A stretch of 64,000 nucleotides of DNA from Catajapyx aquilonaris. Taxonomy: Eukaryota. The position numbers and the translations under genes were made by a program. This document shows positions 1 through 59,866 of the stretch, piece after piece. Each line of letters starts with the position of its first letter. Positions within the stretch are counted from its first letter, which is position 1. Below the pieces are notes generated by a model that saw only the letters and a program-made list of their open reading frames with translations, was not told the origin of the DNA and did not search any database. The stretch spans positions 1 through 64,000 of the forward strand of contig KZ538374.1 of assembly GCA_000934665.2 (NCBI GenBank), written 5' to 3'.

Positions 1-98
1 GACGCAGGTGAAAGGATAGTTCCCCAGGCGGGGATCGAACCTGGGGCCTTTCACACAGCAAGCCGTGACGTTACCATCACGGCCACCACACCTCCCCT
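1..98 (-). mobile_element. tRNA-derived SINE head, cut by the window edge, same family as 21672
   Basis: Reverse complement has A box (GGTGGCCGTGATGG) and B box (GGTTCGATCCC) and continues into cctgcgtc as at 21672. Confidence 0.8.
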
Positions 99-12864: not shown

Positions 12865-13145
12865 CCGAAGCAGGTTGGTGTAGTGGATATGGAGTCCGCC
12901 TGCTAATCGGGAGGCCCTGGGTTCGAATCCCGGGGCCGGGGGCACTAACCGTGGTTTCCCACGGTCCCCCCAGGAAGATTCCGGGATCCAGGAAAATTTA
13001 TTTCGTTTCCGCAAAAATAGGTCACAGCCGCTTCCTTCCGTCCCTATCCATGGCCCCACCCAGGTGCGAAGTAAGAGGCAGAAAAATCGAAGAAAACTGA
13101 CGGTGGTATGCCACCCCCATAAAAGGGCTCCGCCCTATCACGGGG

Positions 13146-19708: not shown

Positions 19709-19876
19709 CAGGGTGGTACTATCGGGTTCAAATACTTTTGGCCATTTTATCCTGGTCTTGAAGCAACCCTTCGCACAGACCCCAGGTTAATGAGGTGTGT
19801 GTGGGTGTGTGTGTGAAGGGTTGCTTCAAGACCAGGATAAAGTGGCCAAAAGTATTTGAACCCGATAGTATACCTG
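19709..19876. mobile_element. Hairpin MITE with (GT)n in the loop
   Basis: ~55-bp arms TACTATCGGGTTCAAATACTTTTGGCCA..., CAGG/CCTG-TA ends. Confidence 0.8.
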
Positions 19877-21671: not shown

Positions 21672-22020
21672 GGGGAAGGCGCGGTGGCCGAGATGGTAAC
21701 GTCTCGGCTTTCTGAGCGGAAGGTTCCGGGTTCGATCCCCGCCCGGGATTTCCCCTCCGCCTGCGTCAGTGGGTCTAGACTCGCGCCTAAGAAGGCGTCT
21801 TCGCAACCTAGCCTTCTGGGGGACTGCACACGACCCATTTTCCGACATTGCACTTGCACATGTGTCCCCTCCCCCAAAATCCCTATCCTTACCCCATTTC
21901 CTTGCTTCCCTGCACGGAGAACGAAGAAAAAAAGTCTGTTAAACTAGAAAACCAATGGTGGTAGGCCACCCCCCTATAACGACTTACAGTTGTATCACGG
22001 GGTAAAATAAATGTAAAAAA
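21672..22020 (+). mobile_element. Full-length tRNA-derived SINE
   Basis: A and B boxes, A-rich tail, perfect 16-bp TSD AATATGTTGCAATTAT. Confidence 0.92.
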
Positions 22021-22419: not shown

Positions 22420-22543
22420 CCCGATTGCACCACTGAACCAAAATTACCGCTCCGATAGCTCCTAATGGATCGTTAGAACTTTTAACGTGTGCTAACGATC
22501 TGTTAGGAACTATCGAATCGATAATTTCGTTGGTGCAATCGGG
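22420..22543. mobile_element. Harbinger-like hairpin MITE
   Basis: CCCGATTGCACCA TIRs and an imperfect internal palindrome. Confidence 0.7.
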
Positions 22544-40000: not shown

Positions 40001-43000
40001 ACTGTCTCAGGAATGTCCAGTGCCCGAGAAACATCCCGTCATCCATGTAGGAGACTGATGTGCAGTGAGATCGAAGATGCCTTTGGCAGACGCCTTCCAC
40101 AAGACATATCTCTGGAGTCCCCACTTGGGGGCAAGGATTGCGGTGACCGGTTTTGGGCTTAAGTTGCACAGGCGGTGGCAACCACAGTTGGACAAGGCTA
40201 ATCGCTCCCACTGCTGCTGCTGTGGTTGTCACCTGGGCCGCTCCTCCTCGATCAAGGTGGCCCGAGGCGTACTAGCACAGGACGACGTCATCCTATTCTC
40301 CCTAAACCGTAGACCGAGTGGTATGCACCGAAGACTACAGCAGCAGCAGTACAGAAGCACAGAGTTGTCTCGTGTCAACATGTTCAAGCGGAAGAAGACT
40401 GTTTCTAAGGGCGGAGAGGGCCGTGTTGTGGTGGACCAGGACATGAAGCTGATGCAGTTGCAGCGAAGGTCCGAAGAGCAGGCCACGGCTCCGGTACCAA
40501 GACGCAGGAAGAGTGTCCAGCAAGGGACGTACGTGGTGCGGAAAAGGTCCAATTCCGAAGCTCCAGCTGCTGGAGACGGAGAACCTAAGGCTCCCGCTGC
40601 GTTTCGGTACCGGCCCTTACCTGACCCACCTGTAGACAGTGCTGATGACCGTAGCGAAACAGTGTCATTATCGTCGGCCAAGCTGTATCGGAGTTCGTCT
40701 GCTGATAGTGTTCTCAGTGCGAACTCGAAGGTTCCGAATGTGGCTGTGAGTGCCAGTGATGGAGTGGTTCGGGCACTTAGTTTGGGGAGACTCTCCAGTC
40801 CTTTTGATATGGCCAGTCCCAGCAAAGAGAACAAACCTTATGTGCCGTCTGAAGTACGTATTATGTTTATTTGAAACATTTTATCAGTGTGTCAATTGTT
40901 GCTCGTGTGTAATACTGCCGAATCGTATGCTTACTGATGTTATACACCTTTTGGCATACACAGGAACGATACTCGAGATGCAAATCCGTTCTTAATAAAT
41001 AAGTCGCTAAGCATCGAAAAAGGCACGCCCATGGCACAAATGCACGGTACGATGGGATTGTCAGTGGACTGTCGTGATTTACAGGCCACTTCAGTAACCG
41101 CATACCCACCCGTACCTTGAGAGGATGGCCGTAAACTAACGCCATGTGGTCACCGCCCTGAGATGAAAGGCGGAAGAATTCGCTCTTTGAGAGGCAGTGT
41201 CACATATTATCAAAATATAGGACAGTTACTATAGGATAGGGTCACAACTCGTGGAAGTGTATTAGAAGTCCACCTTGGTATTTTTTCACTCCCCACAATA
41301 TTAGTATATTACTGACCCGCGATTCCGCCTAATAATTTTTTCCCCAAATAAAAATCGTTGGCACAGGAGGAATCCTAGTCCAAAAAACTAGCTTCAATAA
41401 TATTATAGTCCAAAGCAAAGATTCGATCTTTCACTACTTGTTTACATGGTAGTGAATATGAAAAATCCTGGTTTCCTGGCTTATTAGGAATTTTTAGAAC
41501 TAAATTGAATTCACCAGGCCATAGAGCATAGAAAAATGCTACTTATGGCCGGTTTCACCAAGCCCGGTTTTCATAAGAACCCCAGTTCTTTCGGAAAATC
41601 CCTGCAAATAGAATAGGGTTTTTCCGAAAGAATCGGGGTTTTATGAAAACCGGGCTTGGTGAAACCGGCCATTAGTGGTGTAAATAATTCAAACCCGACG
41701 AAATGGGACGTACAGTACCGGTACCGGATTTCTCGTGCCTGCGGACTAAATAATAGTATGATATAGTCCTACATGCTGTAAATATAATAATCGTAACATA
41801 ATTTAAATGCGACATATTATTTTCATAATATTCATAATTTTAACTTCGAATAGTTCTTGATTCCTCGTCTGTCACATGAATTACTCAACGTGTGTATCGT
41901 AAATTCTTCAAAGTGTGGTTCTATACGAGTAGACCACAAGGTTGAAAAATATTACGCTTCATTTGCGGCATTTTCAATTTTGTCTTTGAGCCCAGTGGAC
42001 ACGCGCGTTTGACATATTTGCTTGAAGCCTTGGAATTCTGAAAAATCAGGCATAAGTGGAATAATTTTCAGATATGACTGTTAAGTTTAATAATAATTGC
42101 ATTAGTCCGAATTCTGTTTCCAAATTTTATTCAAACATCTCTGCAGGAAATTGTACTTTCTGTATAGGAAACGATTGACTTGACCATCAAAATGCACGTG
42201 ACATGACACTTGTGCCTAACTCAGTTTTGTCAGAAATGTGACTGTTAATTTGGCATGTCAGGTCTTCATTTATTTATGCTAGATACTGCGGGAAATATAT
42301 GCCGCGTACTTGACATGCCTGGGCCGGTGGTACCGTAACTTCTCGCGTCACCTCTGTACTTTACGGCCAAGTGGTGATGGTCAGTCAATCTCTCACGTAA
42401 ACACGATACCGTAAATGGTGCTGTTACTGAAATATTTCGAAAATCTTAAATATGTATATGTAGAGAAGCAGGTTCCACTTGACTCGCTTTTTTTGTCCAC
42501 TTGTTACAACCCCTCCAAAAATTTACTACTCCGTACAGCTAGCATTGCCCATGGGTAGGTCGATCACAATGTAGTGTAACCTACACCGAGAGCCTGAAGC
42601 GTATCGGTGGTCCATTTATGTCCGTGTGCCCAATATGCAACCAGGCAACATTCGATGGCATGTGCAGTAAGTGAGTAAGGTTCCGGTCATTGATTCCAAC
42701 GGAACAGGCTAATGGCAATTCATCAGTGACCGTGTTAGCGCACTCTTATGACTAAGCAGTACATGCTACTTCAAAATCTATTATAATAAATTGCATGGAA
42801 AAGAGGTGGGGTATGAGAAACGGCATGGGAAAGAGGAATATGTCGATATAGGTAAGTGGGATAATGAAAGTCCCCTTCGTCCGACTATCTTTTCAGTGCA
42901 AATAATATTATATGGTACTGTACATAACAAGGATGTTCTGACTGGCGATTAGACACTACATTTGTGTATTTTAAATTTCATAGGGCGACCTAGTTTGGTT

Positions 43001-46000
43001 CGACCCAGGAATCGGCTATGTTCTACCAGGTGAAGTACAAGAGTTTCATCGAGCTGGCCAGGTCATCACCATCCAAGCTGTCATCGCTGGAAAGGTAAGC
43101 AGATTATGCATAGAATGGCAATTTTAAAAATGTGGTTTTGAAACGTATTTTGATTGAGTAGTAATATGCTTTCATGTATCAAATCAGGGACTATAGAAAG
43201 TACTATTTTTTCAGGCCCAAGTGTTTACACTTGACAATTTGTCAACTGTAAGGCGGAGACAAGACCTGGGCCAATATGGGGTAGAAGACATGATTCAGAT
43301 GCTGTAAGTCAATAATATATTTTTATATAGAATATACGGTATGTGTGTGTGTGGTGCATATATGTGGGGAGGAAAGGAGAGAAATGTTTTCATACAGGCT
43401 CTCGTGCATTATTTTCTCAAACTGCATGAGTTCTCGAAAAAAGATATTGTGAGGTAAGCTACAGGAGGCGGTCGGTAAATCACATTATTTGTGACTACCA
43501 TGTATTATTTCAAGGCTATGTAATCTGCCCATATGGCAATGAGGACAGGGATCGAGAGTAAGGACCCTAAGTGCATATTTTCCTACAGAAGAGCACCACC
43601 AGCTGCTGACCTAATTACTGCAAAGTAAAGTCATACCACAATCCACAAAGAACAAATAGTACGGTATCGGTACCTGAAATACCCCTGTACGACGACAGTA
43701 TGGGTTGTGCAGAGCAGAGCTTCCTAACAGTATCATAGATATGAATATCATTTACAAGTATTAACGACCTAGTTGCATGTTGTTCTTGCGGGCTCATGAT
43801 TCCCTCTATGAACAAACAGCAGTTCTTGTACTGTTCCAAATAGTGCAAGTATTCCGAGTGCCAATTTAAACCCGCAGCTCAAGAAGGACAAATTTAGCTG
43901 ATAGCTGATTGCCTCATGAATGCCTCGACCATGATGTATCGGAGTTTTTTATGTCGTTTGTTGGGACCGGGCATTGTTATGTTCCTGGTATATTACCATC
44001 CGTCAGTGTTAACCAATGACAAAATTTCTCAGCAATTTGTAACATTCATAGGAAAGGGCATAAATTGTGTGGGATAAGTCAAAATTAGCTTTTGTACAGT
44101 TCAGTGGGGGATGGCCTCTTTCACTTCCTCGATGTCGCTGAAGTTCTGAACTGCCAGGTGCTTCTTCATTGGTCCAAAGAGATGGTATACCATGGGTAAA
44201 ACCACCTCTTTGGACCAAAAAAGAAGCCCTAGCTTCTCAAGAACTCAGCCGCGACATCGAGGAAGTGAAAGAGATAATCCCACACTGGCTTCCCACCCAG
44301 TCGGACGCTTTTTTCTGCAATGGTATGGAAAAACGCGTGTCCTGATGGGACATATGCACCAAATTTTATGGCGACTATGTCTAAAATGAGAGAGAGACTT
44401 GCACTTTCATATGTATATCTCAGTTTCAGTTTCTCTAGTGAAACCTCTGAATTAAAAAATTACTCAATTACTTTTCGATTCTCCCTCGTTTAATGACAGT
44501 GTAGTGTACAGTGCTGGCCACATATCGAGGCAACCGCCAGCGACATTTTTCCGAAGCGGCAGAAGAAGGAATCGAAGATGAGCATGCTACAAGCCGGGCG
44601 AGCCAGATTCCTTCTTCTGCCGCTTGGGAAAAGTGTCGCTGGTGGTTGCCTCGATATATGGCCAGCACTGTACTATTCATTAAATATATCATCAACCACA
44701 AGTCCATAACCAGTCTACGCGCGTTCACGGGATAACTGCTAACTAGCTGCTATATTTAAACCGCCAAGTGATATACGGCTCCGAGTACAGATTTTCCTGG
44801 TTTTTGGTATTTCCTCCGGGAAAAGGTGATCCATACCATAGTATAATTTTTGCACCCTGGCTCTGACCTCTGAGAAATAGTGAGGCATTTCCTCACAGGA
44901 CACCCGACATTCCGAGGTGATATCGCGAGGCACGAATGCCCTCAAGGACGAAATAGACAGGTTCAATGTGACGCGGTGCAATCTTACCAGGCACCCCACG
45001 TTGGTATAGTGCCGTAGTGAATCAGAGTGGACCTAAGAATGTAACAAAGCTTATGGAAAATTAATGATGTTTGCAGACAGCACATTTTCCCAAAGAAACC
45101 GGGAAAATCCGACAATCAAATGTCCCGGTTTTATGAGCAGCCGATCGTATCGAAAATAGATATATCGTAATATAACAAATAAAAATCGATTATTACATAA
45201 CGCAGCATCGATATGCCAGTGTTCAAAAAACATCGATAACAAAGAATCGATATATCGATGTCAAAGTTAGCAGAAATAACGTCGTTGGTAGGGGTCCCTC
45301 TGGCTGGGAGTAATGGCGCACTCCTGTAATCCTGCGACTGGGAGGCCGGTGTCGAGGGATGCCTGAGGGGTAAAGTCCGACCCCAGGGGCCGTGACCGGT
45401 ATGGCACGCGTCCGCAAAGATGTGATGTATCAGCCCCAGATGGGTCCGGGAGGGGAAAAAACACAAAACCCCAAAAAAACCCAACTAAATTCAAGACAAG
45501 TAACAAGGAGATGAAGCAGGAAGAGGAGATCCCGGCGGGCTACCCCCCTCAGGCAGACCAGACACCAACTTTTTTCATTTTCTTCAAATTTTCGGATTGA
45601 AGTATGTTTCCTGATACACAGGACACATTCGTGGAATTTTGGGGGGTGTACGGAGATTTTTAATTAAAGGTGTGGTTTTGTACGGGGGCCAGTCACAGTC
45701 TGGAGGTGCTCTGGAGCCTTGGGACTGGGGACCGTGAAATTCCAGATGGAAGTGTGCACTATTACTGTTGCATGTGGTACTAATAATAATTACATAGTAA
45801 TTACACAACTTGGAAGTGCTTGTAGCCATTTCACTGTGATTGTCACGGAAGGGCTGCGTCATGTAGTTTATTATTGTAATGGCAATTGTGACAATGCTGT
45901 TACGATGCTGCCACACTGAAGAGAAATTAGTGCATATTCCCTAGTAATCTGCATCAAGCTGATGCCAATTTACAAGGAAAGTACTTGTGTACTGATGTAC

Positions 46001-49000
46001 TTTCTGCCACTGCCTTACCAGCATGTCCCACTTATTCTCAACTGTTCAATGGTTGGCCATTTGTGTCATGCCAACTACTTGGTGCTGACGGGATATACCA
46101 GGGCCCTACAATCAACCAGTGCCCTTTTTGTGGAAGGCTAATAGTTCTTGCTTTTCATGCCGCAGGGACTTGAACGAAGCATCACTGCTGTGGAATCTTA
46201 AAATACGCTACGACAAAGAACTGATTTATGTGAGTATCAAGAACCTTGTTCGTTGCTGGTAATGGATCAAGTAGCATAACTGACATTCCCTTTCAGACAT
46301 ACACTGGTAGCATTCTGGTTGCTGTCAATCCATATAAAATGTTTGACATCTATGGACTTGACATGGTGAAGAAGTACGAGGGGCAAATTTTAGGCACACT
46401 CCCACCGTAAGTGAAACGATATAAGATACCTCTGCAACGAAGTAAATTCAGTGCAGTTGATTCAAATTGTGCTGGAAATAGCTGTAGTCGTGGAGCCTTT
46501 TCGGTTATCATGAAACCAACATCTGTGAGTATGTTTATTATTTCATAGGCACCTTTTTGCTATTGGATCTGCGGCATATGGGAAAATGAGCAAAGACCAA
46601 GAAAACCAAGTGGTTGTCATCTCAGGAGAGAGTGGTGCTGGAAAGACAGAGAGTACGAAGCTTGTAATGCAGTACCTGGCGGCTGTTAATAAATCTCCAT
46701 CTAACCTCATCACGGAGCAGATCTTAGAAGCATCTCCATTACTTGAGAGTTTTGGCAATGCTAAGACTGGGAAGAATGACAATTCCTCCAGATTTGGCAA
46801 ATACTTGGAAGTTCATTTTAAAGAGTAAGTTAACACATATGCTGGCTGTGGTCTTATCATCGAGTATTCTCTTCAATATTGCTGGCATTTTTATTATTGC
46901 AGGGGAGTCATCACTGGAGCCAAGATTACAGAGTATCTCTTGGAAAAATCGAGAATAGTGACTCAAGCACCTGAGGAGCGAAATTACCATGTCTTTTATG
47001 AGATGCTCAAGGGTCTCCCTACAGATCAAAAGGAAAAATATGGTCTTCTCACCCCAGAAAAGTACTTCTACTTGAATCAGGTAATCACATCTTCAGAGCG
47101 TCAGAGAATTTTGAGATTACTGTTAGGCGTGTTTACGCTAGAGGTCAGATACATTGAATTACCATGATGTGTACGTTCAACTCAGCCATAGTGGAGATGA
47201 GTCAGAGTCGTGCCTACATCATTGTGACTGAATCTTCAGAGCACCTGTCTAGTGTAACTGTGCCTATAATAGTGCCTTGATTTTTGAAATACACAAACCA
47301 AGCATTTTGGATATGATATATTATGCAGGGAGGAAGCTGTGAAATTGAGGGAAAGTATGATGGTGAAGATTTCCAGGCACTAATGGCAGCCATGCAGGTC
47401 CTGGGATTCACTTCTGAAGAGCAAGACACCATCTTCAGGATATTATCATCAGGTGCTGTTTTATTGATTGAAATTTCTAAGCAATGTGCATATACTAAAA
47501 CCACATTTTCTTTGTTACAGTGCTCCACTTGGGCAATGTATATTTTCATCGAAAGGCTCTGAAGCATGGGCAAGAAGGAGTTGAAATAGGATCAGATGCT
47601 GAAATTAAGTGGTCAGGTCACCTACTTCAGCTCAGTGTTGATGGAATTCGCCGGGCCTTAACCACAAAAACAACTGTAAGAGTATCTTCAATTGGAGCCT
47701 TTTTGTGTGTACGCAAACTGTATGTTATTATCCATTGTTTCACTTTTTAGGAAGCTCGCAACGAACGTGTCGTAACGCCCTTGAATATTGACCAAGCACT
47801 GGATGCCAGAGATGCAATAGCAAAAGCTCTGTACAGTTCTCTGTTCACTTGGCTGGTTTCCAGAATTAACCAAATTGTCTGCAAGGCATCCAAAAAGACA
47901 TCCATTTCAATCCTGGACATTTTTGGCTTTGAGGATTTCAAGGTATCCCACAGTTATATTCAATGCTATAGAGATAGAAAATGATAACTTCTGCTACATG
48001 TCATTGTTGTATCCCATTGCAAGAATGTAACATGACTGTGTATTATGGCATTATAGGAAAACAGCTTTGAACAACTGTGCATAAATTATGCAAATGAGAA
48101 CTTGCAGTACTACTTCAATAAGCACATATTCAAACTGGAACAGCAAGAATACATCAAAGAGAAAATAGAGTGGCAAACAATTTCTTACCAGGTAAAGTCC
48201 TTGATTTTTTGTAGGCGGAGGCATTTTTGTTACTGAGGATTAAATTCACTACAGGATAATCAACCAGTCATCAGCTTGATTGCTCGGAAACCTGTTGGGG
48301 TGTTCCACCTACTGGATGATGAGTCCAACTTTCCAAAAGCCACTGACCTTTCTTTTTTGGAAAAGTGCCATTATAACCATGCCCTGAATGAACTGTATTC
48401 ACGGCCACGGCTTTCCAGTATGGAATTTGGCATAAGGCATTATGCAGGTCAGGTGTGGTACAATGTTGAGGGTTTCTTGGACAAGAACAGAGACACATTA
48501 CGACATGATGTTGTTGATTTGCTCATCAGCAGTAAAGTGACGGTAAGCAAGCCATTAGCTACTGATATGATGTGAATGGTTTATGCCAAAGTAATATGTT
48601 GGCTCCGCAGATGATTTCACGAATGTTCCAAAACATGCGAATTACTATTGAAGCATCGAAAACCATCAACAAGGCCAATGGACGTTTTGTGACAATGAAA
48701 CCAAGAACTCCCACTGTAGCTGCCAGATTTCATGACTCTCTTCAGCAACTTTTGGAATCCATGACTCAGTAAGTTTTATTGAATGTGACACATTACTTGT
48801 GGTCCATATCAATTACCAACATAGGGAAGTAGCACAGTAGTGTATTGGTAACACCTGAGCCTCCACCTCTGAGGTCCAAAGTTCAATCTACAGGTTAGAG
48901 AAAGGAGTTTTTCACATGGAAAGGCTTTCAAGAATTTATGTCATTGTTCACGTGGATTTTCTACGGATTCTCTTGTTTTCTTCCACTGCCAAAAAAACTT

Positions 49001-52000
49001 CTCTTCCCCTCTCATTCTCTCTTATGCCTCCAGGTCTTAGTTGTCTTGGTCCCCAATAAACCAAGCCAATAACTAATATTTTATTACTTTTCCTCTAGGT
49101 GCAATCCATGGTTTGTTCGCTGCATTAAGCCTAACAATGAGAAGGCACCAATGAAGTTGGACATGCCCATTGTACTGGAGCAGCTGCGATATGCTGGGAT
49201 GTTGGAAACTATTAGGATAAGGAAAATGGGTTATCCTATCCGCATGAAGTTCTTCCAATTTGTGGATAGGTATTGCTGCCTTTGCCGGGGTAGGATACCC
49301 AGAGGCTCTCCTGCCAGGTAACAACCATTTAATGGCAGTTTCATTTTTTAATGGCTGTGGGACCAGAGGGCACAATTTTATGACATGGATTGTGCCAGTA
49401 AAACTTGTCTTGGATATAATTATTGTTTTTTTAATAGGGAGATCTGCCGACTCATTCTGGAGTCAAACCCAAGCATTCAGGGCCATTATCAGCTGGGCAG
49501 TAACAAAGTATTCCTGAGGGAAAATCTGGAACAACAGCTGGAACAGGAGAGATTCCGATTACTAAATAATGCTGCTATTACCATTCAGAAGAATGTGAAG
49601 AAACACCTGGCACGCAAGCGCTATCAGGCCATGAAGAGGGGCACCCTGAAAATCCAAGCCAATGTTCGAGGCTGGATCCAAAGGAGAAAGTACAGCAAAG
49701 TTAGGACAGGAGTTGTCAAGGCCCAGGCAACTTATCGAATGAAGAGGCAGCTAAGAATTTACCAGGATATGAAGGTAAGCAGTGCTTTCCATGGTATGGA
49801 GTGTTAATTGGCATATGGAGTCAACACAGATTAAAGATTCCCTCAGTGTCATGCATATTCCTTAGCACATGAGCCCTAGGCCATACTGTGACAATAATAA
49901 ATTACTCTTAATATTATATTTTCTTTGCAGGAAGAGATGAAGAGACGCACAGAAGCTGAACGTGTTGCACGAGAACGAGCGAAAGTGAAGGCCCAAAGAG
50001 AAGAAGCTGAGAGAATTTCTAGAGCAGTTGCAGGTGTCAATCATCTGGAAATTCCTGCAGAACTGGCTTTCATTTTTAGCAAGATAGATGGTATGTTTCC
50101 AGCATAATTTATTAATGAAGGTGATAAAGTGTTACAATAGTGTAGCTCACTAGTGCATCAGAAATAGAAGTTTTTGAAACACAGTATGATAAGTCACTAA
50201 TGTTCATCGCTGAAAATATCACAGAAGCAAGTACTGTCACAAATGTGGAGAGTTATAAGGAAGGGAGCAGTCATTCCGCAAGATGGGCTCCAAAAATTAG
50301 GGAAAAATATCACTAATCCAAAGTATGCTGCCAGTTTTTAAATTTGATGATGCATAGGCAAATGAAGTTATGTTTAAGTTGTTATCTTTCTGGTAAGATA
50401 TAATAGTCAGCGATGCAGTATCCTCTCACCTGCAACACCTACCTGGGCTCCTGGGAACCTATCAGGAGATGGGCCAATCATATTGATGCATCTGCATGGT
50501 TGGAGGTAGAAATTTTGTGGCCATCCTTTGTCTGTTGGCATTACTTTGTGTGTGTGTTCATTGCATTTCTCTCAATTACTTCGTGAGGCTGTTTTGTCTA
50601 TTATTTTGCTGCTAAGATGGCTAAGGGTTGGCACTTTGCTAAACAAGCGTCTGGCTTGAATTTTATGCTTTTGTACATTGGTTGCTGTAATGGACAGCCT
50701 ATTTTAAATAAGTGATAATTTTTCTAATTTTTGGATTACTGAATGACCAAACCCTGCCTTTAAGAACATGTACAGTTGCGAGTGTAAAGATGTAGACAGT
50801 CTACCATCCACCTCTTTATAGGGATTTGCGGGCATAATATACCACATTTCTGCTGATGTAGATGTAAAACAAAATTATGAAATACCTGATTGACCTTGCT
50901 TCAAATTTTTGTGCTTCTGACTGTTTATGCACTCAAACTTCCTTGTACAGTGTTGGACATAAATCGAGGCATATTGCTAGCGACATTTTCCGAAGCGGCG
51001 GAAGAAGGAATCGAAGATAAGGATACTGCAAGACAGGCGAGCAAGATTCCTTCTTCTGCCACTTTGGAAAATGTCGCTGTCAGTATGCCTTGATTTATGT
51101 CCAACGTTGTACAGTAGCTAAAGTGTGATAAGAGAGCATTGTTCAGGTTAACTGCTGTGTATATCTTTGAATGGCTACTTAAAATTGCAGCAATTCTAGA
51201 TGCCCACCTACCCAAAGTGGTCACTTATGAATGGCTGTAAGTTCCAGTTGTGACAAGTCAAATAAGAGAATTTGGCATTGCATATGGATATTCACAATAC
51301 ATAATCAGACAGTTTCCCTGCATTTGAAATCATGTAACTGGGCCTGCCATCAGAGTTGTGTAATACAAATAAACAAAAAAAAATTCTTTCACTTTCAGAC
51401 TGGCAAGAAACTCACACTGAGAGGAATCTGGTCAAAGTTGTGGGACAAGTAGCAGAATTGAAAGAGAAAAACTTTCTTCCAAATGACATCGACTATCATG
51501 CATTCACCAAGTTTACAAATGTGTATTTCAAGGTACACTATTTAAGTTTGTGTGATTATATTGGGTTAACAAACTAGTGAATTAGACTTTTTTGTGCTGT
51601 TTCTTGTCACTAATCTACAGCCATAAAGAATTATGCCTTCATTATGTATCACTAGGGAGAGCTCTGATATTGCACTGTTAAGTTCACAGATTATTTGTAA
51701 ATCTGATGCAGTTATAAAACAATAGGAAAGAAATTTCAACACACATTCAGTAATAAGGATGCATGTAAAATACTAATTGAATTTTCATTTATATTTAGTC
51801 ACATATTTGGGGGATGAAACGAGAGCCAATCAAGACACCATTTCTTGCCAAGTCAAAGGACATTGACTATCAGGATTCATTGGCAATGTTCAAACTGATC
51901 CTCAGGTTTATGAATGACAATAATCTGAATGGAAAGAAGGAAATTGTCTTAGGAAATTACATAGTCAATAAGGTAAGAAAAAAAAACATACTTGGCAAGT

Positions 52001-55000
52001 ACTTGCTACTATTCATGAGGCATTTTACTTCAGGGTATCATCAATGAGAAGATGCGAGATGAACTCTTGTGCCAGCTCTGCAACCAGACATGGAAAAATG
52101 ACAACGAAGCCAATTGTGAACGAGGATGGTTACTCATGGCTAACTGTTTGTCTGTTTTTCCACCTTCCAAGACGTTGTACAAATACCTCCTCAAGTTTGT
52201 GTTGACATCTTTCTACCTTTTTTTGTCCTTTTTTAAAAATAAGTGTAGAAATCGACTGATTAGTTACATGACCTTACAGGTATGTGTCAGACCATGCATA
52301 TGACGGCTATAAAGCATTGTGCCAAAGAAAGCTTCTTCAGTCTGCTCAAATTGAAGCACAGTTGGCAAGGAACTACCCTCCCTGTTTGTTGGAGTGGAGA
52401 GCCAACAGGAAAAGAACAAACATGGCCCTAGAAGCGACTTTCGCAGATGGTAAATCACGTCAAGCTGCAGTTGAGTCATGGACAACAGGAGAGGAGTTTT
52501 CAGCTGTTATGGTGGAAGAAAGAGGCATTGCAGAGAGCTTTGGATGGACAGTGAGCCTAACAGAAGAGGAGAGCATGTATGAACTAAATGGATGTGATTA
52601 CGTCTTGGACCTTCTTTCTGAAATGGAACTACCACCTGCCTTCCCAGTGTGCAAGAACTTCTTCCTAGTTTCTAACTCCAAAGGTGATAAACAGAAACGG
52701 GTAAGTTATTAATTGTTGTGCCTTTGTTATGTGCATGGAATGCTTTTTCTGTATGATATGGGTTACATTACTGAAGTATTTTTGACTTCCATAATCTATG
52801 TATTCTGACACATCAATTTGTTATTCTTCTATCGTAATAGAAAATTAAGCAACTTTTGTAGCTGATAATAATCTTTTCATGAATTGGCATTGTGGCACCA
52901 TATGCCTTTGTAAGAAAGTTGAACCATATTAATTATATGGTTTCCTTCTACTCAATTATCCATAGTGGTTATAATTTTTTGCACTACACTGCTTATTTTT
53001 AAGCAGTTACTCTTGCACAGCTACAATTAGAGGTTGTCTAAAATGTTTGCTACTAATATTAGGCCAAATGGATTCATTCTTTTTAACTAATGCAGCAGGA
53101 TTTAATGTGTTCAACCATTGGTCTCGTGTATCACCGGGCCAGTAAAGGTCACTCACAACATCATAAGCTCAGGATGGTGGGAAAAGCACTTCATTTTGTG
53201 CTTAGGTTCCTTGAGATATTCTGAGACAAAATTATCCTAACTCATAAAAGACACTGTTGGCTTAATAATAATAAGCAGCTTAGTCCTAATCACCAAGCAC
53301 TATGGACATTTCAGTTGGTGCACGCACTATACAGGGTGAAGGGAAACTAGCGGATAATAATCACCAGGTAGACTGATAGTACTCGCAAAACTAATATAGG
53401 GATGTGCAATTAGTTTTGGCCAATGTTGTGAAGTAAAAGCGCACGGCGCTGTCAAAGTTTCGTGACGTCACAGTTCCGCCGTTCCGCCAGCTTCTAAGAA
53501 GCAAAAGTCAGTTCTAGGGCTTCCAGTCCCTTGCCTTGGTCTCCTAACAGGTCGTCCATGTGCAAAAAGCGATCAAATCCCGTCAGAGTAATAATCCGGG
53601 TACGACACCCATGCACTTAGTCGTTTTTGCCTCATATTCCACCATCTGGCCCTCTACACTTTAAGGGCGCTGTACACATTAACTACACAACAGAGCCAAA
53701 ACCTAATTGCACATCCCTATATTAGTTTTGCGAGTCCTATCGGTCTACCTGGCTATTGTCCGTGAGTTTCCCTTCACCCTGTAGATTATTGTGTTGAAAG
53801 AGTAGATTATGTAATGTGGGCCGAAATTGACTCTCTGAGTGACAGAGATTGGGAAGGAATATCATATGCAATATGAGCAAATTGGCTTAAAGATTCCAAT
53901 AGTGACCCTGTTGGATGCAGTCGTACACACTGGAAGGGATTTCTTATTAGAACTGCTTAATAGGCTGAGATTATTGATGAAAAGGCTGGGGTTCAGTGAA
54001 GTACTCTGTAGAGAAGAACAATTATTCTTAACCTAGTATATGACGCCTAATTTATTTTATTATGCAAAGCCACACAAGTTACTTGTAGATTAAGTAACTG
54101 TGTCATTATATTAATTTCTTCTCCTGGCACTGGTGCACCAAGACAGTGCAAGAAACTATTTGTAGTTTGCATGGCACTAGAGCTGTATCCCTGCACTTCT
54201 TATGCACTCAGGGTTTGGGTACCTATGCTGCCAACACTATCCCCCTGACGGTAGAAGTGCACGACTATCTGCCACCTGTAAGACGACCTACACAGCCACC
54301 ACCTGAACCACCCATACCTAAATTGGCAGTAAGTGGGTCAATGGATTTTGATGCATTGTTTTTGCACAAGCATGCCAAAAGTGTCACTGACAATGGAAGT
54401 TATACCCCATTCATGTGGATGCATATAATATGTTCTATTGAAAAGAAAAGAAAAGGGAAGTTGTAAATTATACACTGTACTCCCGATTATCCAGGCTAAT
54501 GAATGCATGGGTGTCGCCGGATAATAGGAAAACATGGATAATTGGGAAATGGTCCTATACTGTCAAAATGAGCTATTCCCTGGTTTTTAATGTACTACTG
54601 GACATAGTGTATGCTGTTTTAAGTAAGATTTAATCGAAATAATAAAGCGTACCATAGATTTTTAGTTTGTCTTCTAGAAAAAGTCTTACATATTTTTGTT
54701 TGCGAGACATGATACTGACATTTTCTGGACTTTTTTTTTTTTTTTTTTGCCGATGCACAGATAATCCGCACCTGGATAATCGGGAATAGAGCATATTACA
54801 GTTCAATTTTTCTTATCAGTGTTTGCATCACATGAAATTTTGGGCAACACGGTGGCTGAGTGGTTAGCGCCACAGCCTTCCACCTCTGAGGTCCTGAGTT
54901 TGATCACTGGGTCGGACGGAGGATACTTATGTGGATAGAGTTACGATGGGTTCTCTCCGTGTTCGCATGGGTTTTCTCGGAGTTCTCCCATTTCCTCCCA

Positions 55001-58000: not shown

Positions 58001-59866
58001 AAAATTAACTTAATGTTGAGGAAATGATAGTAAACAACAGATTCAGTATCGTAATTACTGTATAACAATTTAAGATTGGTGTCCTGAAATTCATTTTGTG
58101 TCCTTTTCCACAGTCATGTGAATGGGCACATGAATGGTGCATGTCACAGTCCATCTCCAGATGCTCCTTCTGAAAGTCTAGCAGGAGGAAATGTGGACTT
58201 ATCTGAATTTGGCTATCCTAACATTGGTGAGAGAGCTGAGGATGAGAAGACCACATACAGTCATGGGCCTCCAAGGTAGGTAGCTCCTATGAGGGAGTGA
58301 CCATTATCATACTGAAAAATGATTTTATTTCCATCAGGTACATAAAAGCCCAAAATGCCAGCAAAAAATCAGCAGCAGGCAGTCACTCCAGTCGTGCATA
58401 TATTGAAACTCGTTATTCTGAGAAGTCTGAATATGGAGGAACCAAGTCATCTGCTTTGTCTGATACCAGCGAAGCACCATCTCTTGGTAATAATAAACAG
58501 TCATAGGCATTGCCAGTGCAAAATACTTAGTGTATCTTTTTCAGCCTCACATGTTAGGAGGGTACGAGTACCATCTCAAGCATCAGATGTGGACCAATTC
58601 TTGGATGACTTGTTTATGCCTGTCCTAGATGGCAACCTTGATGAACTTTCAGATGCTCGATCCCTTGCAGCCTCAATCAAAGGTGGTGGGGATAGGAATG
58701 ATAGGGAGGAACCTGTAGACTATAATGAATGGGATCCATCAGACTTGTAAGTGGTAACCATTTTCATCATGCCTTCTGGGTAAATAGAAAACCTTTGCAC
58801 AAAAGGCTACTTTGCAGGAGAGGGAAGAGACTGCTCAATTTTTGTAAAGCAAGCCATCACATAGAGATTTTGCCATGACATACACTGTATACCAGTACCC
58901 TTTTTTGTGCTAAGAATTATGAAACCAAAAATGTACATGGCAGGTTTTTAATTTACACTGTCAAAGTAAAGTACTAGTTGTGACATTTGTAACAAAAGTG
59001 CAGGTTATAAGTTAAATCATTAATGAAACTTTTTTTTTGCAGGGTTTCCATTGATATTAATGACTGCATTTCTGATCTCTGTGGAGAGTTATTTGTGGAT
59101 AGTGCCATTGCTAAGCTGACTCATGTTCAAGCCCTTGCTTCAGCCTTGAAAGGAGGTGGTAAAGGAATTGGAGGTGTAGAGGCCCAAGTAAGTATAATTT
59201 GCTGTTGCTGGATAATTTGCAATACAACTTTTCTTGAGGAAGACTAAAGCATGTTTCACAAATTCGCCGGATGGCTGAGCAGGCAGAAAGAGGGCGTTTG
59301 GGCGCAGGGCACCCGCTGAATTTGTGGGATCTCCCACCAGCTTTCCTCCTGGCACGGCAATTCTGGAGCTAGTGTCTCATTCGCTATTTTTCTGCCTGTG
59401 CCCTGCTACCGCCCAGTATCCGTCCTCTCACTTTTCGCTGAATTTGTGAAACACGCTTAAGGCTGCAAGTGCCTCTTACATGTACCATATACGCCAAATT
59501 GTTTCATACCCCCGGGGTATGAAACAATTTGTCGTATAGCACTATACCTAGGTATACGACAAATTGTTTCATACCCCGGGGGTATGAAACAATTTGGCGT
59601 ATATAGTACATATACAGTTCGAGAGTTTCCCAATACTCTTCCAGTTGGATAATATGAATAGTAGTGTCTTCTAATTGCAGACTATGTCGAGATAATTTAC
59701 TAATCTAAATAATTGCATTAATAATAATGTGTCATTTTGCAGGTGTCGCAAAATTCAGCAACTGGGCCATTTGGGTACACAGGTGTGAATTCTACTCCTG
59801 CAGTGTCGGGGATGGTTTCGCCACCTCCCATGATGATGCCTACAATTCCAATCTACACTCCTGGTG
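34059..59866 (+). CDS. Myo15: Unconventional myosin XV (Myo10A/Sisyphus-like), multi-exon, 3' end not found in window
   Basis: Exons join in frame at GT-AG junctions: [10 protein letters not shown]-terminus, P-loop GESGAGKT, switch [10 protein letters not shown], switch II DIFGFE, three IQ motifs, MyTH4 ([12 protein letters not shown]...RGWLLM). The [12 protein letters not shown] and [18 protein letters not shown] segments resemble arthropod myosin XV as I recall it. Confidence 0.93.
34817..34873 (+). pseudogene. Tc1/mariner transposase remnant
   Basis: [18 protein letters not shown] matches the WIGRGGPxxWPPRSPDLTP motif with a stop replacing W. Confidence 0.6.
39590..40200 (-). pseudogene. 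Decayed reverse transcriptase/RNase H (DIRS-like or hepadnavirus-like)
   Basis: [15 protein letters not shown], then a frameshifted VRHLGYTL and weak RNase H-like remnants. Confidence 0.5.
40380..40853 (+). CDS. Myo15: Myo15 alternative long N-terminal exon (158 aa, MFKRKK...PYVPSE)
   Basis: Part of the longest ORF in the track, CAAC-ATG start context, ends GAA|gtacgt in phase 0, compatible with the exon at 42984. An upstream in-frame ATG exists at 40323. Confidence 0.7.
41546..41671. mobile_element. PIF/Harbinger hairpin MITE
   Basis: TTA TSD on both sides, TGGCCGGTTTCACCAAGCCCGG TIRs. Confidence 0.88.
42984..43094 (+). CDS. Myo15: Myo15 exon (GDLVWFDPG...AVIAGK)
   Basis: tag| acceptor, |gtaagc donor, N-terminal SH3-like motif. 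Confidence 0.92.
43215..43303 (+). CDS. Myo15: Myo15 exon (AQVFTL...GVEDMIQM)
   Basis: GVEDM start of motor domain, canonical splice sites, phase 0/2. Confidence 0.92.
44102..44287. mobile_element. Hairpin MITE
   Basis: CAGTG ends, inverted TCTTTCACTTCCTCGATGTCGC and TTGGTCCAAAGAG blocks. Confidence 0.75.
44509..44670. mobile_element. 162-bp Tc1/mariner-type hairpin MITE, copy 1
   Basis: TA TSD, CAGTGCTGGCCA TIR, related copy at 50948. Confidence 0.9.
45144..45260. promoter_or_regulatory. Cluster of ATCGAT (DRE/BEAF-like) motifs upstream of the SRP-like RNA
   Basis: ATCGAT at 45185, 45207, 45232, 45246 and 45254, plus partial copies upstream. Confidence 0.45.
45303..45575 (+). ncRNA. 7SL/SRP-related Pol III RNA with Alu domain and helix 5 but a non-canonical S domain
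   Basis: 5' end GCTGGGAGTAATGGCGCACTCCTGTAATCCTGCGACTGGGAGGCC aligns with the metazoan 7SL Alu domain. 45348-45379 pairs with 45536-45566. A T6 run follows at 45570. Confidence 0.75.
45570..45575 (+). terminator. Pol III oligo-T terminator
   Basis: TTTTTT 3 nt after the closing strand of the long-range helix. Confidence 0.65.
46166..46229 (+). CDS. Myo15: Myo15 exon ([21 protein letters not shown])
   Basis: Myosin consensus segment, cag| and |gtgagt. Confidence 0.92.
46297..46406 (+). CDS. Myo15: Myo15 exon ([13 protein letters not shown]...GTLP)
   Basis: Myosin consensus segment, canonical splice sites. Confidence 0.93.
46549..46824 (+). CDS. Myo15: Myo15 exon with P-loop and switch I
   Basis: [12 protein letters not shown] and [10 protein letters not shown]. 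Confidence 0.95.
46903..47080 (+). CDS. Myo15: Myo15 exon (YLLEKSR...ERNYHVFY)
   Basis: Motor motifs, phases consistent with neighbours. Confidence 0.95.
47329..47452 (+). CDS. Myo15: Myo15 motor exon (GGSCEIEG...RILSS)
   Basis: In frame, phase 0/1, weak gtgctg donor. Confidence 0.9.
47521..47675 (+). CDS. Myo15: Myo15 motor exon (LHLGNV...LTTKTT)
   Basis: LHLGN motif, canonical sites. Confidence 0.92.
47751..47942 (+). CDS. Myo15: Myo15 exon with switch II
   Basis: RDAIAKALY and [10 protein letters not shown]. Confidence 0.95.
48057..48191 (+). CDS. Myo15: Myo15 exon, relay helix
   Basis: [16 protein letters not shown]...FKLEQQEY. Confidence 0.95.
48255..48542 (+). CDS. Myo15: Myo15 motor exon
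   Basis: [13 protein letters not shown] and HYAGQVWY...FLDKNRD. Confidence 0.95.
48611..48768 (+). CDS. Myo15: Myo15 exon, loop 2 region
   Basis: [20 protein letters not shown]. Confidence 0.92.
48825..49030 (+). mobile_element. Diverged SINE, family of 54842
   Basis: Shares CCACCTCTGAGGTCC and a decayed core. Confidence 0.6.
49099..49317 (+). CDS. Myo15: Myo15 exon ([10 protein letters not shown]...[14 protein letters not shown])
   Basis: SH1/SH2 helix motifs. Confidence 0.95.
49438..49774 (+). CDS. Myo15: Myo15 exon, converter and three IQ motifs
   Basis: [50 protein letters not shown]. Confidence 0.93.
49931..50090 (+). CDS. Myo15: Myo15 exon, charged helix and [12 protein letters not shown]
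   Basis: In frame, canonical sites. Confidence 0.9.
50948..51109. mobile_element. 162-bp hairpin MITE, copy 2
   Basis: TA TSD, collinear with 44509-44670. Confidence 0.9.
51399..51532 (+). CDS. Myo15: Myo15 exon ([15 protein letters not shown]...VYFK)
   Basis: Phase 1/0, consistent with neighbours. Confidence 0.9.
51799..51972 (+). CDS. Myo15: Myo15 exon, MyTH4 start
   Basis: REPIKTPFL...FKLILRFM. Confidence 0.92.
52034..52194 (+). CDS. Myo15: Myo15 exon, MyTH4 core
   Basis: [13 protein letters not shown]...[16 protein letters not shown]. Confidence 0.93.
52280..52700 (+). CDS. Myo15: Myo15 exon, MyTH4 end and FERM-like start
   Basis: [30 protein letters not shown]. Confidence 0.92.
53332..53781. 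mobile_element. Mariner-type MITE with ~90-bp TIRs
   Basis: TA-CAGGGTGAAGGGAAACT...AGTTTCCCTTCACCCTG-TA. Confidence 0.9.
54212..54328 (+). CDS. Myo15: Probable Myo15 proline-rich cassette exon (39 aa)
   Basis: cag| and |gtaagt, phase 0-0, encodes [19 protein letters not shown]. Confidence 0.7.
54472..54790. mobile_element. pogo/Tigger-like MITE
   Basis: TCCCGATTATCCAGG / CCTGGATAATCGGGA inverted ends. Confidence 0.65.
54842..55102 (+). mobile_element. tRNA-derived SINE with Meta/V-type core
   Basis: A box GGTGGCTGAGTGG, core GGGTTTTCTCGGAGTTCTCCCATTTCCTCCCAC, (ATT)n tail, flanking TTGCATCACAT duplication. Confidence 0.85.
55700..55897 (+). CDS. Myo15: Myo15 tail exon
   Basis: [14 protein letters not shown] and RSRSLDNLL, phase 0. 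Confidence 0.85.
55967..56190 (+). CDS. Myo15: Myo15 tail exon
   Basis: [12 protein letters not shown]...[10 protein letters not shown], |gtgagt donor. Confidence 0.85.
56870..57046 (+). CDS. Myo15: Myo15 tail exon
   Basis: Phase 2/2, completes the NDRYF motif across the junction. Confidence 0.78.
58114..58275 (+). CDS. Myo15: Myo15 tail exon
   Basis: Phase 2/2 open frame, canonical sites. Confidence 0.78.
58338..58486 (+). CDS. Myo15: Myo15 tail exon (YIKAQ...[13 protein letters not shown])
   Basis: In frame, canonical sites. Confidence 0.85.
58545..58746 (+). CDS. Myo15: Myo15 tail exon ([23 protein letters not shown])
   Basis: In frame, motif recalled from arthropod myosin XV. Confidence 0.88.
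59043..59187 (+). CDS. Myo15: Myo15 tail exon (VSIDINDC...ALKGGGKG)
   Basis: Phase 2/0, canonical sites. Confidence 0.8.
59248..59457. mobile_element. PIF/Harbinger MITE
   Basis: TAA TSD on both sides, AGC(A/G)TGTTTCACAAATTC TIRs. Confidence 0.85.
59480..59611. repeat. Palindrome made of two palindromes
   Basis: Four alternating copies of TATACG(C/A)CAAATTGTTTCATACCCC. Confidence 0.95.
59743..59866 (+). CDS. Myo15: Myo15 tail exon ([11 protein letters not shown]), last exon I could place
   Basis: ttttgcag| and |gtgagt, phase 0/1. Confidence 0.8.

Follow-up and report, generated by a model that had tools for sequence, protein, structure and literature searches.

A 7SL-derived unit with an A-rich centre in Catajapyx aquilonaris: a gene copy in decay or a rare invertebrate counterpart of the RNAs ancestral to Alu elements

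The unit at 45303-45575 on the forward strand of contig KZ538374.1 from Catajapyx aquilonaris (assembly GCA_000934665.2, positions 1 to 64,000, hereafter the window) raises a simple question. Its two ends are those of 7SL RNA, the RNA of the signal recognition particle (SRP), and its centre is not: has a gene copy simply decayed here, or is this a rare invertebrate counterpart of the RNAs ancestral to Alu elements? Our analysis indicates that it is one or the other. Judged by its sequence, the unit is of 7SL descent, with an intact Alu 5' domain and an equally intact closing portion of helix 5, and it is not the species' ordinary 7SL, since a separate 7SL-type gene is present in the same organism. 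Its novelty, on the same basis, is that of an arthropod 7SL derivative keeping the Alu shell around a centre that is filled, not deleted. The reading we favour, to which we give an even chance, is that the unit is a DNA-duplicated, unprocessed 7SL paralogue that has lost its S domain and belongs to a small diverged family, and hence would be a relic in the SRP sense; it may still be transcribable by RNA polymerase III (Pol III).

The descent of the unit is carried by its match to the Rfam Metazoa_SRP model (RF00017), which is visible only under an E-value threshold, the gathering score of the model being 70 bits. A default Rfam scan of the window at the gathering cut-off gave no 7SL-type match; under the E-value threshold, 45303-45568 (+) was the only one in the 64 kb, at 38.3 bits (E = 1.8e-8 for 501 bases and 2.3e-6 for the whole window). 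The alignment comprises model positions 1-79 and 267-299 (112 in total)—helices 2-4, the UGUAAU motif and proximal helix 5—and passes over 187 S-domain positions as a local end, versus 156 nt of sequence in the unit. This is the outcome predicted in the initial annotation, made from the DNA letters without database searches, which expected the Alu domain and helix 5 to align and the S domain not to. For comparison, a 20-mer from the unit's Alu domain located three metagenome loci: L001, a canonical 7SL of 297 nt (238.8 bits) that carries the same 20-mer; L002, the 5' half of a canonical 7SL cut at the contig end; and L003, a decayed 7SL copy in a related organism (36.6 bits) with a broken helix-3 pair. 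When seven segments of the unit were compared with the canonical 7SL of L001, with 1000 shuffles each, the Alu segment 45303-45347 was the sole significant one (0/1000 shuffles as good), and for the remaining segments (helix-5 strands, the central arms A and B, and the A-rich part) 157 to 878 of the 1000 shuffles did as well.

Helix 5, which joins the 5' and 3' ends of a functional SRP RNA, is present in the unit as 6+11+6 bp. Its outer segment pairs GGTGTC (45348-45353) with GACACC (45561-45566), its middle segment TGCCTGAGGGG (45360-45370) with CCCCTCAGGCA (45545-45555) in 11 perfect pairs, and its inner segment AGTCCG (45374-45379) with CGGGCT (45536-45541), including one U.G. All 23 listed pairs are intact (about 23 bp of proximal helix 5), with pair probabilities of 0.91-1.0. 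The duplex of 45348-45379 with 45536-45566 is predicted at -47.9 kcal/mol, against -21.3 +/- 3.6 kcal/mol for shuffled partners, none of which was as good in 1000 trials, and it is better than 1991/1991 random 31-mers of the window, the best of which reached -30.1 kcal/mol. Together with the E-value and the Alu segment, this duplex bears out the initial proposal that the unit is 7SL-derived with an intact Alu domain and helix 5; a re-reading of the sequence also located every helix listed there where it had been placed, with a loop of exactly 78 nt in arm B. The minimum-free-energy z-score of the whole molecule is a modest -1.92, with 10/200 shuffles folding as well, because the A-rich loop dilutes the signal. 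Within the Alu domain, helix 3 has 6 bp and an enlarged loop; the Rfam consensus has C-G at its pairs 4 and 6, and the unit has A-U and U-A instead. The observation that helix 3 had changed on both strands and is still paired is thus shown against this consensus, the initial annotation having set it against the human RNA. Pair 6 (U9-A18) is C-G in L001 and L002 and a G.A mismatch in L003, and helix 4 with its loop is identical to that of the two canonical loci.

The centre of the unit is where it departs from an SRP RNA. Among the features of a functional molecule, the unit has the Alu domain (helices 2-4, UGUAAU and the tertiary-loop residues) and the helix 5 described above; its score is 38.3 bits where at least 70 are expected, and it lacks an S domain (helix 6, helix 8, the tetraloops, the SRP54-binding internal loops and distal helix 5). 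Neither helix 6 nor helix 8 could be aligned, whether by RF00017 or in the shuffle test against L001. Helix 8 is indeed impossible in 45452-45529 because of its composition (A 42, G 17, C 14, U 5); with RF00017 also skipping this stretch and only 5 U in its 78 nt, the annotated absence of a canonical helix 8 stands. A collinearity with helix 8 that can be drawn by eye (CUAA...AGCAG...UCCCG) was rejected, since 797/1000 shuffles were as good for arm B, 878/1000 for the A-rich part and 711/1000 for 45505-45540. The idea that the S domain had been replaced by an A-rich module therefore needs to be divided. It holds for the 3' half (the 3' strand of helix 6, helix 8 and the 3' strand of distal helix 5), which is now an unpaired A-rich stretch, and it fails for the 5' half, in which GUCCGCA is still traceable. 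This motif lies at nt 108-114 of the unit, versus 106-112 in L001, and is followed by GGGAG roughly at the place of the helix 6 loop. By our estimate, which is not a tested significance, it is unlikely to stand at the canonical distance from the 5' end by chance; the rest of arm A gave no similarity to canonical 7SL (785/1000 shuffles as good). Arm A is closed by ACCC from 45380 with GGGT at 45442-45445, at a closing-pair probability of about 0.5. Because GUCCGCA is traceable at canonical spacing, the ancestor of the unit would have been a full-length 7SL gene, and from its sequence the unit descends from such a gene with the 5' half of the S domain degenerate, as arm A, and the 3' half turned into an A-rich stretch. 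In the 5' half of the S domain, a stretch nearly identical between L001 and L002 is mostly lost in the unit. The features of the unit and its upstream region are collected in the table.

Table. Positions of the features of the 7SL-derived unit and its flanks in the 64,000-nt window
Feature	Position	Strand	Basis or remark
Whole 7SL-derived unit	45303..45575	+	Predicted 5' end to end of T6; RF00017 match; paralogue contigs diverge upstream of 45302/45306
Alu 5' domain: helix 2, helix 3 (6 bp, GGGAGU/ACUCCU), UGUAAU, helix 4 and loop	45303..45347	+	Aligned by RF00017 at high posterior (asterisk)
Helix 5, 5' strand	45348..45379	+	Segments 45348-53, 45360-70, 45374-79
Arm A, former 5' strand of distal helix 5/helix 6, self-folded	45380..45445	+	GUCCGCA at 45410-45416
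Arm B, 6-bp stem CCGGGA/UCCCGG	45446..45535	+	45446-45451 with 45530-45535; pair probability 0.81-0.93
A/purine-rich module, 78 nt, without helix 8	45452..45529	+	Composition; skipped by RF00017
Helix 5, 3' strand, including the CAGNCAGACC motif in common with the canonical 7SL of L001	45536..45566	+	RF00017; duplex test
T6, Pol III terminator-type run	45570..45575	+	First run of at least 4 T on the + strand; none inside the unit
TATA-like AAATAA, -29 to -24	45274..45279	+	Two same-genome paralogues have TAAATA / AATA at the same distance
Five ATCGAT palindromes, -118 to -44	45185..45259	.	5/13 window sites within 75 bp; short imperfect repeats around

The unit does not stand alone in its organism. 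We compared 44800-46100 with contigs of public sequencing runs, among them three DNA runs from one sample, from which the assembly itself may have been made. In these, parts of the unit are read through without a break: a 452-nt contig covers 44893-45344 and bridges the 5' end, further contigs lie over 45315/45325-45427, one of which (113 nt) bridges 45315-45427, and a 5575-nt contig runs from 45398 to beyond 46100 with zero differences. Other contigs represent relatives. A 1221-nt contig follows 45302-45354 with 4 differences and a 1126-nt contig follows 45306-45363 with 7, both being unlike the window thereafter; a 2123-nt contig follows 45398-45461 with 2 differences and an AGG insertion after 45438, and continues into a shorter, related A-rich stretch, this copy having no match to the helix-5 3' strand at 85% likeness; and one contig matches 45315-45367 with unlike letters where the RNA has its first 12 nt. 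At 45376 a T>C variant is seen, by which the U.G pair of helix 5 becomes C-G. By these contigs the same organism has no fewer than two other 7SL-type genes, as well as another copy with the unit's architecture, so that the search for a separate 7SL-type gene suggested by the initial annotation had a positive outcome. Homology among the paralogues begins at the 5' end of the RNA; upstream of it their sequences are unlike, though each has a TATA-like word near -30. The 7SL-type loci look like a small family including damaged copies, and the architecture of the unit exists in at least two copies, one possibly damaged; as the second copy has arm A and also the beginning of the A-rich module, this architecture would be older than that duplication.

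A run from a second study (X5), the kind of which is not on record, extends this picture. One of its contigs (91 nt) equals 45473-45563 exactly, and another (274 nt) shares 45325-45354 and continues like the 1221-nt paralogue past the point at which the unit diverges. No X5 contig lies over 45372-45415 or either flank, and uncovered parts were not counted as evidence. The 3' module thus occurs unchanged in a second sample, alongside 7SL-type sequence of normal length. Two short feeder contigs of the same run join the 91-nt contig on its left. Immediately left of 45456 and 45473, where the window reads GGGG and CCCC, they have runs of 16-18 A; to the right of these A runs they and the 91-nt contig follow the window exactly to 45563. 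A long A tract that is polymorphic, or a different locus, could be behind the A runs, no library artefact having been found to account for them.

Outside the organism, the A-rich architecture is absent from all three metagenome loci, and scans of genome-contig and viral-contig collections gave 0 matches and no orthologue of the unit. L003 was considered as an orthologue of the architecture and rejected: beyond the Alu domain its score is 16 versus a shuffle mean of 17.6, and it has no 3' partner strand for helix 5, its best duplex being -18.5 kcal/mol against -47.9 in the unit. Both L001 and L003 have a tRNA gene beside the 7SL-type gene—a 110-nt match at 1029-1138 in L001, probably intron-containing, and a gene at 354-425 in L003—at a distance of 160-230 nt across the two loci, which may be a case of Pol III gene linkage in those organisms.

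The annotated T6 terminator follows directly after helix 5, and a target-site duplication, a 3' A tail and a LINE-type (long interspersed element) or SINE (short interspersed element) tail are all absent from the unit, as had been noted. The unit has no similarity to its own flanks on either strand, and short direct and inverted repeats between it and the downstream flank were discarded, as 349, 463 and 104 of 500 dinucleotide shuffles were as good. The B-box-like site noted earlier did not hold up: it departs from the consensus at 2 positions, and 98 such sites are observed in the window versus 95 expected, which is chance level. Upstream, AAATAA is not conserved in L001 and L003, and the four 7SL loci (the unit and L001-L003) show no upstream conservation, neither this word nor the ATCGAT cluster being shared. 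The palindromes of the cluster resemble the insect DRE core; the cluster may act as an activator upstream of the unit or belong, unrelated to it, to a Pol II promoter. The unit is intronic and in sense orientation in a myosin-XV-like gene, between the exons 42984-43325 and 46158-46250; the exons of this gene, mapped by tblastn with six myosin-XV-like proteins, lie between 42984 and 58708 (+). The best named relatives of the host-gene protein are arthropod, Homarus being the closest of the six used, with up to 95% identity in one exon, in agreement with an arthropod source; a 271-aa ORF at 40059-40874, searched for a closer placement, gave no hit. Within the myosin-XV-like gene, 46550-47080 is the P-loop exon, 49352-49807 holds the IQ motifs and 52272-52712 an RA_2 domain, and the gene extends past both mapped ends.

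How such a unit could have arisen can be sketched as follows. A 7SL gene would have been copied by DNA duplication in an arthropod, into a sense position within the myosin-XV-like intron. The S domain would then have been lost, its 5' half becoming degenerate and its 3' half an unpaired A-rich stretch, and the intact Alu domain and helix 5 would be an inheritance from the functional 7SL parent. Among the SRP proteins, SRP9/14 associates with the Alu domain; helices 6 and 8 are required by SRP19, helix 8 by SRP54, and the loops of distal helix 5 by SRP68/72. If it were transcribed by Pol III, the unit would yield an RNA of about 270 nt able to bind SRP9/14. It could carry SRP9/14 only, because the S-domain protein sites (helices 6 and 8 and distal helix 5) are gone; unable to assemble SRP19, SRP54 or SRP68/72, such an RNA would have no part in signal recognition. 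Several sequence features are consistent with a relic of this kind: RF00017 coverage limited to the Alu domain and proximal helix 5, below the gathering score; sister 7SL-type contigs including damaged copies, and the decayed L003 in a related organism; and the want of a target-site duplication, an A tail or flank similarity, together with paralogues that each have their own upstream sequence. The unit also has features expected of an unprocessed pseudogene: 7SL homology, loss of an essential SRP part and no marks of retroposition. Four observations weigh against simple decay. It would have been very uneven, with the Alu 5' domain and 23 helix-5 pairs intact and the 5' half of the S domain mostly lost; the intact helix 5 is therefore unlike the product of neutral decay, which should break this helix too. 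The pairing of helix 3 has been kept through two-sided changes (U9-A18 versus C-G in L001 and L002), in a place where L003 has a mismatch; the one helix-5 variant seen, at 45376, changes a U.G to C-G; and 45473-45563 is exact in run X5. These observations fit constraint, and each can also be explained by a functional diverged parent. We conclude that a plain gene copy with a dead S domain accounts for the data at least as well as a functional SRP9/14-binding RNA does.

The principal competitor to a dead gene copy is that the unit encodes an exapted, selected Pol III RNA, whose Alu domain and helix-5 stalk would bind SRP9/14 and whose single-stranded A-rich loop would serve as a new binding platform for protein or nucleic acid, which would make it an invertebrate functional analogue of BC200, scAlu or 4.5SH-type RNAs. 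We regard this as a minority possibility. It draws on the Alu domain and helix 5 having been kept while the S domain became unrecognisable, on the pairing-preserving changes in helix 3, on a second copy with arm A and an A-rich start, by which the architecture would predate the duplication, on a TATA-like box and a T6 with no internal T run, and on the unchanged 3' module in X5. It is held back by the failure to find an orthologue in metagenome, genome-contig and viral-contig scans, by pairing that may have been inherited from a functional parent gene, by a second copy without a 3'-strand match at 85% likeness, and by an upstream region that is not conserved with other 7SL loci, combined with the chance-level B-box-like site. 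The more specific proposition that an arthropod 7SL copy gave rise to a stable Pol III RNA—Alu domain, helix-5 stalk and A-rich loop cap—that would bind SRP9/14 only and be selected in a small family seems to us, on the sequences in hand, rather doubtful. That the unit is merely the species' ordinary, divergent SRP RNA is scarcely credible; RF00017 does align both ends (span 1-299), but the score is under the gathering value, no alignment of the S domain could be made, a helix 8 is beyond what the A-rich stretch can form, other 7SL-type contigs are present in the same organism (including the 274-nt one in X5), and related organisms have a fully canonical 7SL (238.8 bits).

Two further explanations were weighed. 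At the 31-mer level the two copies of the architecture share 45315 to about 45461, and no single contig runs from upstream of 45303 to past 45376; with this shared stretch and without a contig tying the full 5' end to the body, the assembled join is putative. The window could accordingly hold an assembly chimera of the two near-identical copies, its full 5' end perhaps belonging to the other copy and its body being 5'-truncated and promoterless. At 45315 the contigs do show two left continuations, one being the 5' end as in the window and the other unlike it, and there are two bodies, which differ at 45376, at 45428, by AGG after 45438 and in the A-rich tract. Repeats of 60-150 nt are normally resolved by read pairs, however, and contigs of 452 nt (44893-45344), 113 nt (45315-45427) and 5575 nt (45398-46100, no difference) bridge parts of the unit; even with the copies swapped, a full Alu domain would in one of them nonetheless lead into this arm A and the start of the A-rich stretch. 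We judge a chimera improbable. The other explanation, which the initial annotation had raised as a possible SINE master gene, is that the unit is the source gene or a member of a young 7SL-derived retroposon family of the SINE1 type. Its head does reach the 60% identity to 7SL, over 60 nt or more, that is asked of such SINEs (Alu domain and start of helix 5 against the canonical loci), its retained 7SL part (112 positions aligned, 187 skipped) is near that of known 7SL-derived SINEs (PMC13023118), one other copy apparently lacks the first 12 nt, like a 5' truncation, and an internal A-rich tract is present. Against this, a target-site duplication and a 3' A-rich or LINE-type tail are absent, and contigs are unbranched over 44893-45344 and from 45398 to beyond 46100 in the three DNA runs, with a single other contig containing arm A. 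By this indirect count—unbranched contigs, one other contig with the same architecture and one copy in the 64-kb window—the unit falls far below the minimum of at least 100 copies for a SINE family in SINEBase (PMC3531059). With so few variant contigs, unbranched flank contigs and no retroposition marks, the master-gene proposal was abandoned and we give a retroposon family very little credence.

Several known systems can be set beside the unit. It agrees with metazoan SRP RNA as modelled by RF00017 at the 5' end, in helices 2-4 and UGUAAU, in proximal helix 5, in the 3' CAGNCAGACC motif and in ending on a T-run terminator, and it is of similar length (266 nt versus 297 nt in L001); it differs in lacking helix 6, helix 8 and the 3' strand of distal helix 5, with 38.3 versus 238.8 bits for L001. 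Unprocessed 7SL pseudogenes, exemplified by L003, likewise have a 7SL Alu domain followed by non-matching sequence and a comparable score (36.6 versus 38.3 bits), but in L003 one pair of helix 3 is broken and a 3' partner strand for helix 5 is missing, both of which the unit keeps. Primate BC200 also has a 5' part from the 7SL Alu domain, with an A-rich region internally after it, and its gene is a Pol III unit present in single copy; it differs in originating from a retroposed Alu monomer and in its unique, unpaired 3' part, whereas the 3' end of the unit is the original 7SL strand pairing helix 5. Any BC200-like function of the unit is putative. Finally, the heads of 7SL-derived SINEs (FLAM / pB1, hagfish SINE1-1_EBu and shrew-mole Urop monomers) keep a similar portion of 7SL, about 116 nt (PMC13023118, PMC7245038) versus about 112 positions in the unit. 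All known 7SL-derived SINEs have a central deletion of about 183 nt, according to PMC13023118; in the unit, by contrast, the centre is filled (156 nt, comprising the degenerate S-domain half and the A-rich stretch), there is no tail or target-site duplication, copies are few, and the unit has its own upstream TATA-like box. In the papers searched, such SINEs are reported from supraprimates, hagfish and one shrew mole only (PMC10886601, PMC7245038, PMC13023118). A full-text literature search, with subscription journals and supplements outside its scope, found no 7SL derivative in arthropods, nor does one appear in the accessible parts of PMC6327564, PMC3160391 and PMC4233971.

What the locus means depends on which side of the initial question it falls. 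If it is a selected RNA, it would be the first 7SL-derived functional RNA outside vertebrates and a living intermediate at the start of Alu-type elements. Were it found to be expressed and conserved, the step of keeping the Alu domain and dropping the S domain would have been taken in invertebrates too, and the unit would offer a system in which to study a role of the Alu-domain ribonucleoprotein without retroposition. If it is a decaying copy, the genome would be shown to carry a diverged 7SL multigene family, and a sub-threshold Rfam match of this kind should not be annotated as an SRP RNA gene.

The window contains a few other features of small RNA type. A tRNA-Arg(TCT) gene lies at 21677-21753 (+), and its B box, at 21729-21739, is perfect. 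The B-box consensus is also matched without a mismatch at 31-41 (-) and 12920-12930 (+), which are not tRNA genes according to ARAGORN and may be the heads of tRNA-derived SINEs or tRNA pseudogenes. Four long hairpins, at 19718-19868 (+), 22438-22530 (-), 44106-44283 (+) and 59512-59578 (-), have Rfam miRNA-precursor matches of 32-50 bits, below gathering. They are probably foldbacks like those of miniature inverted-repeat transposable elements rather than miRNA genes, because the hairpin at 19718-19868 is a near-perfect inverted repeat.

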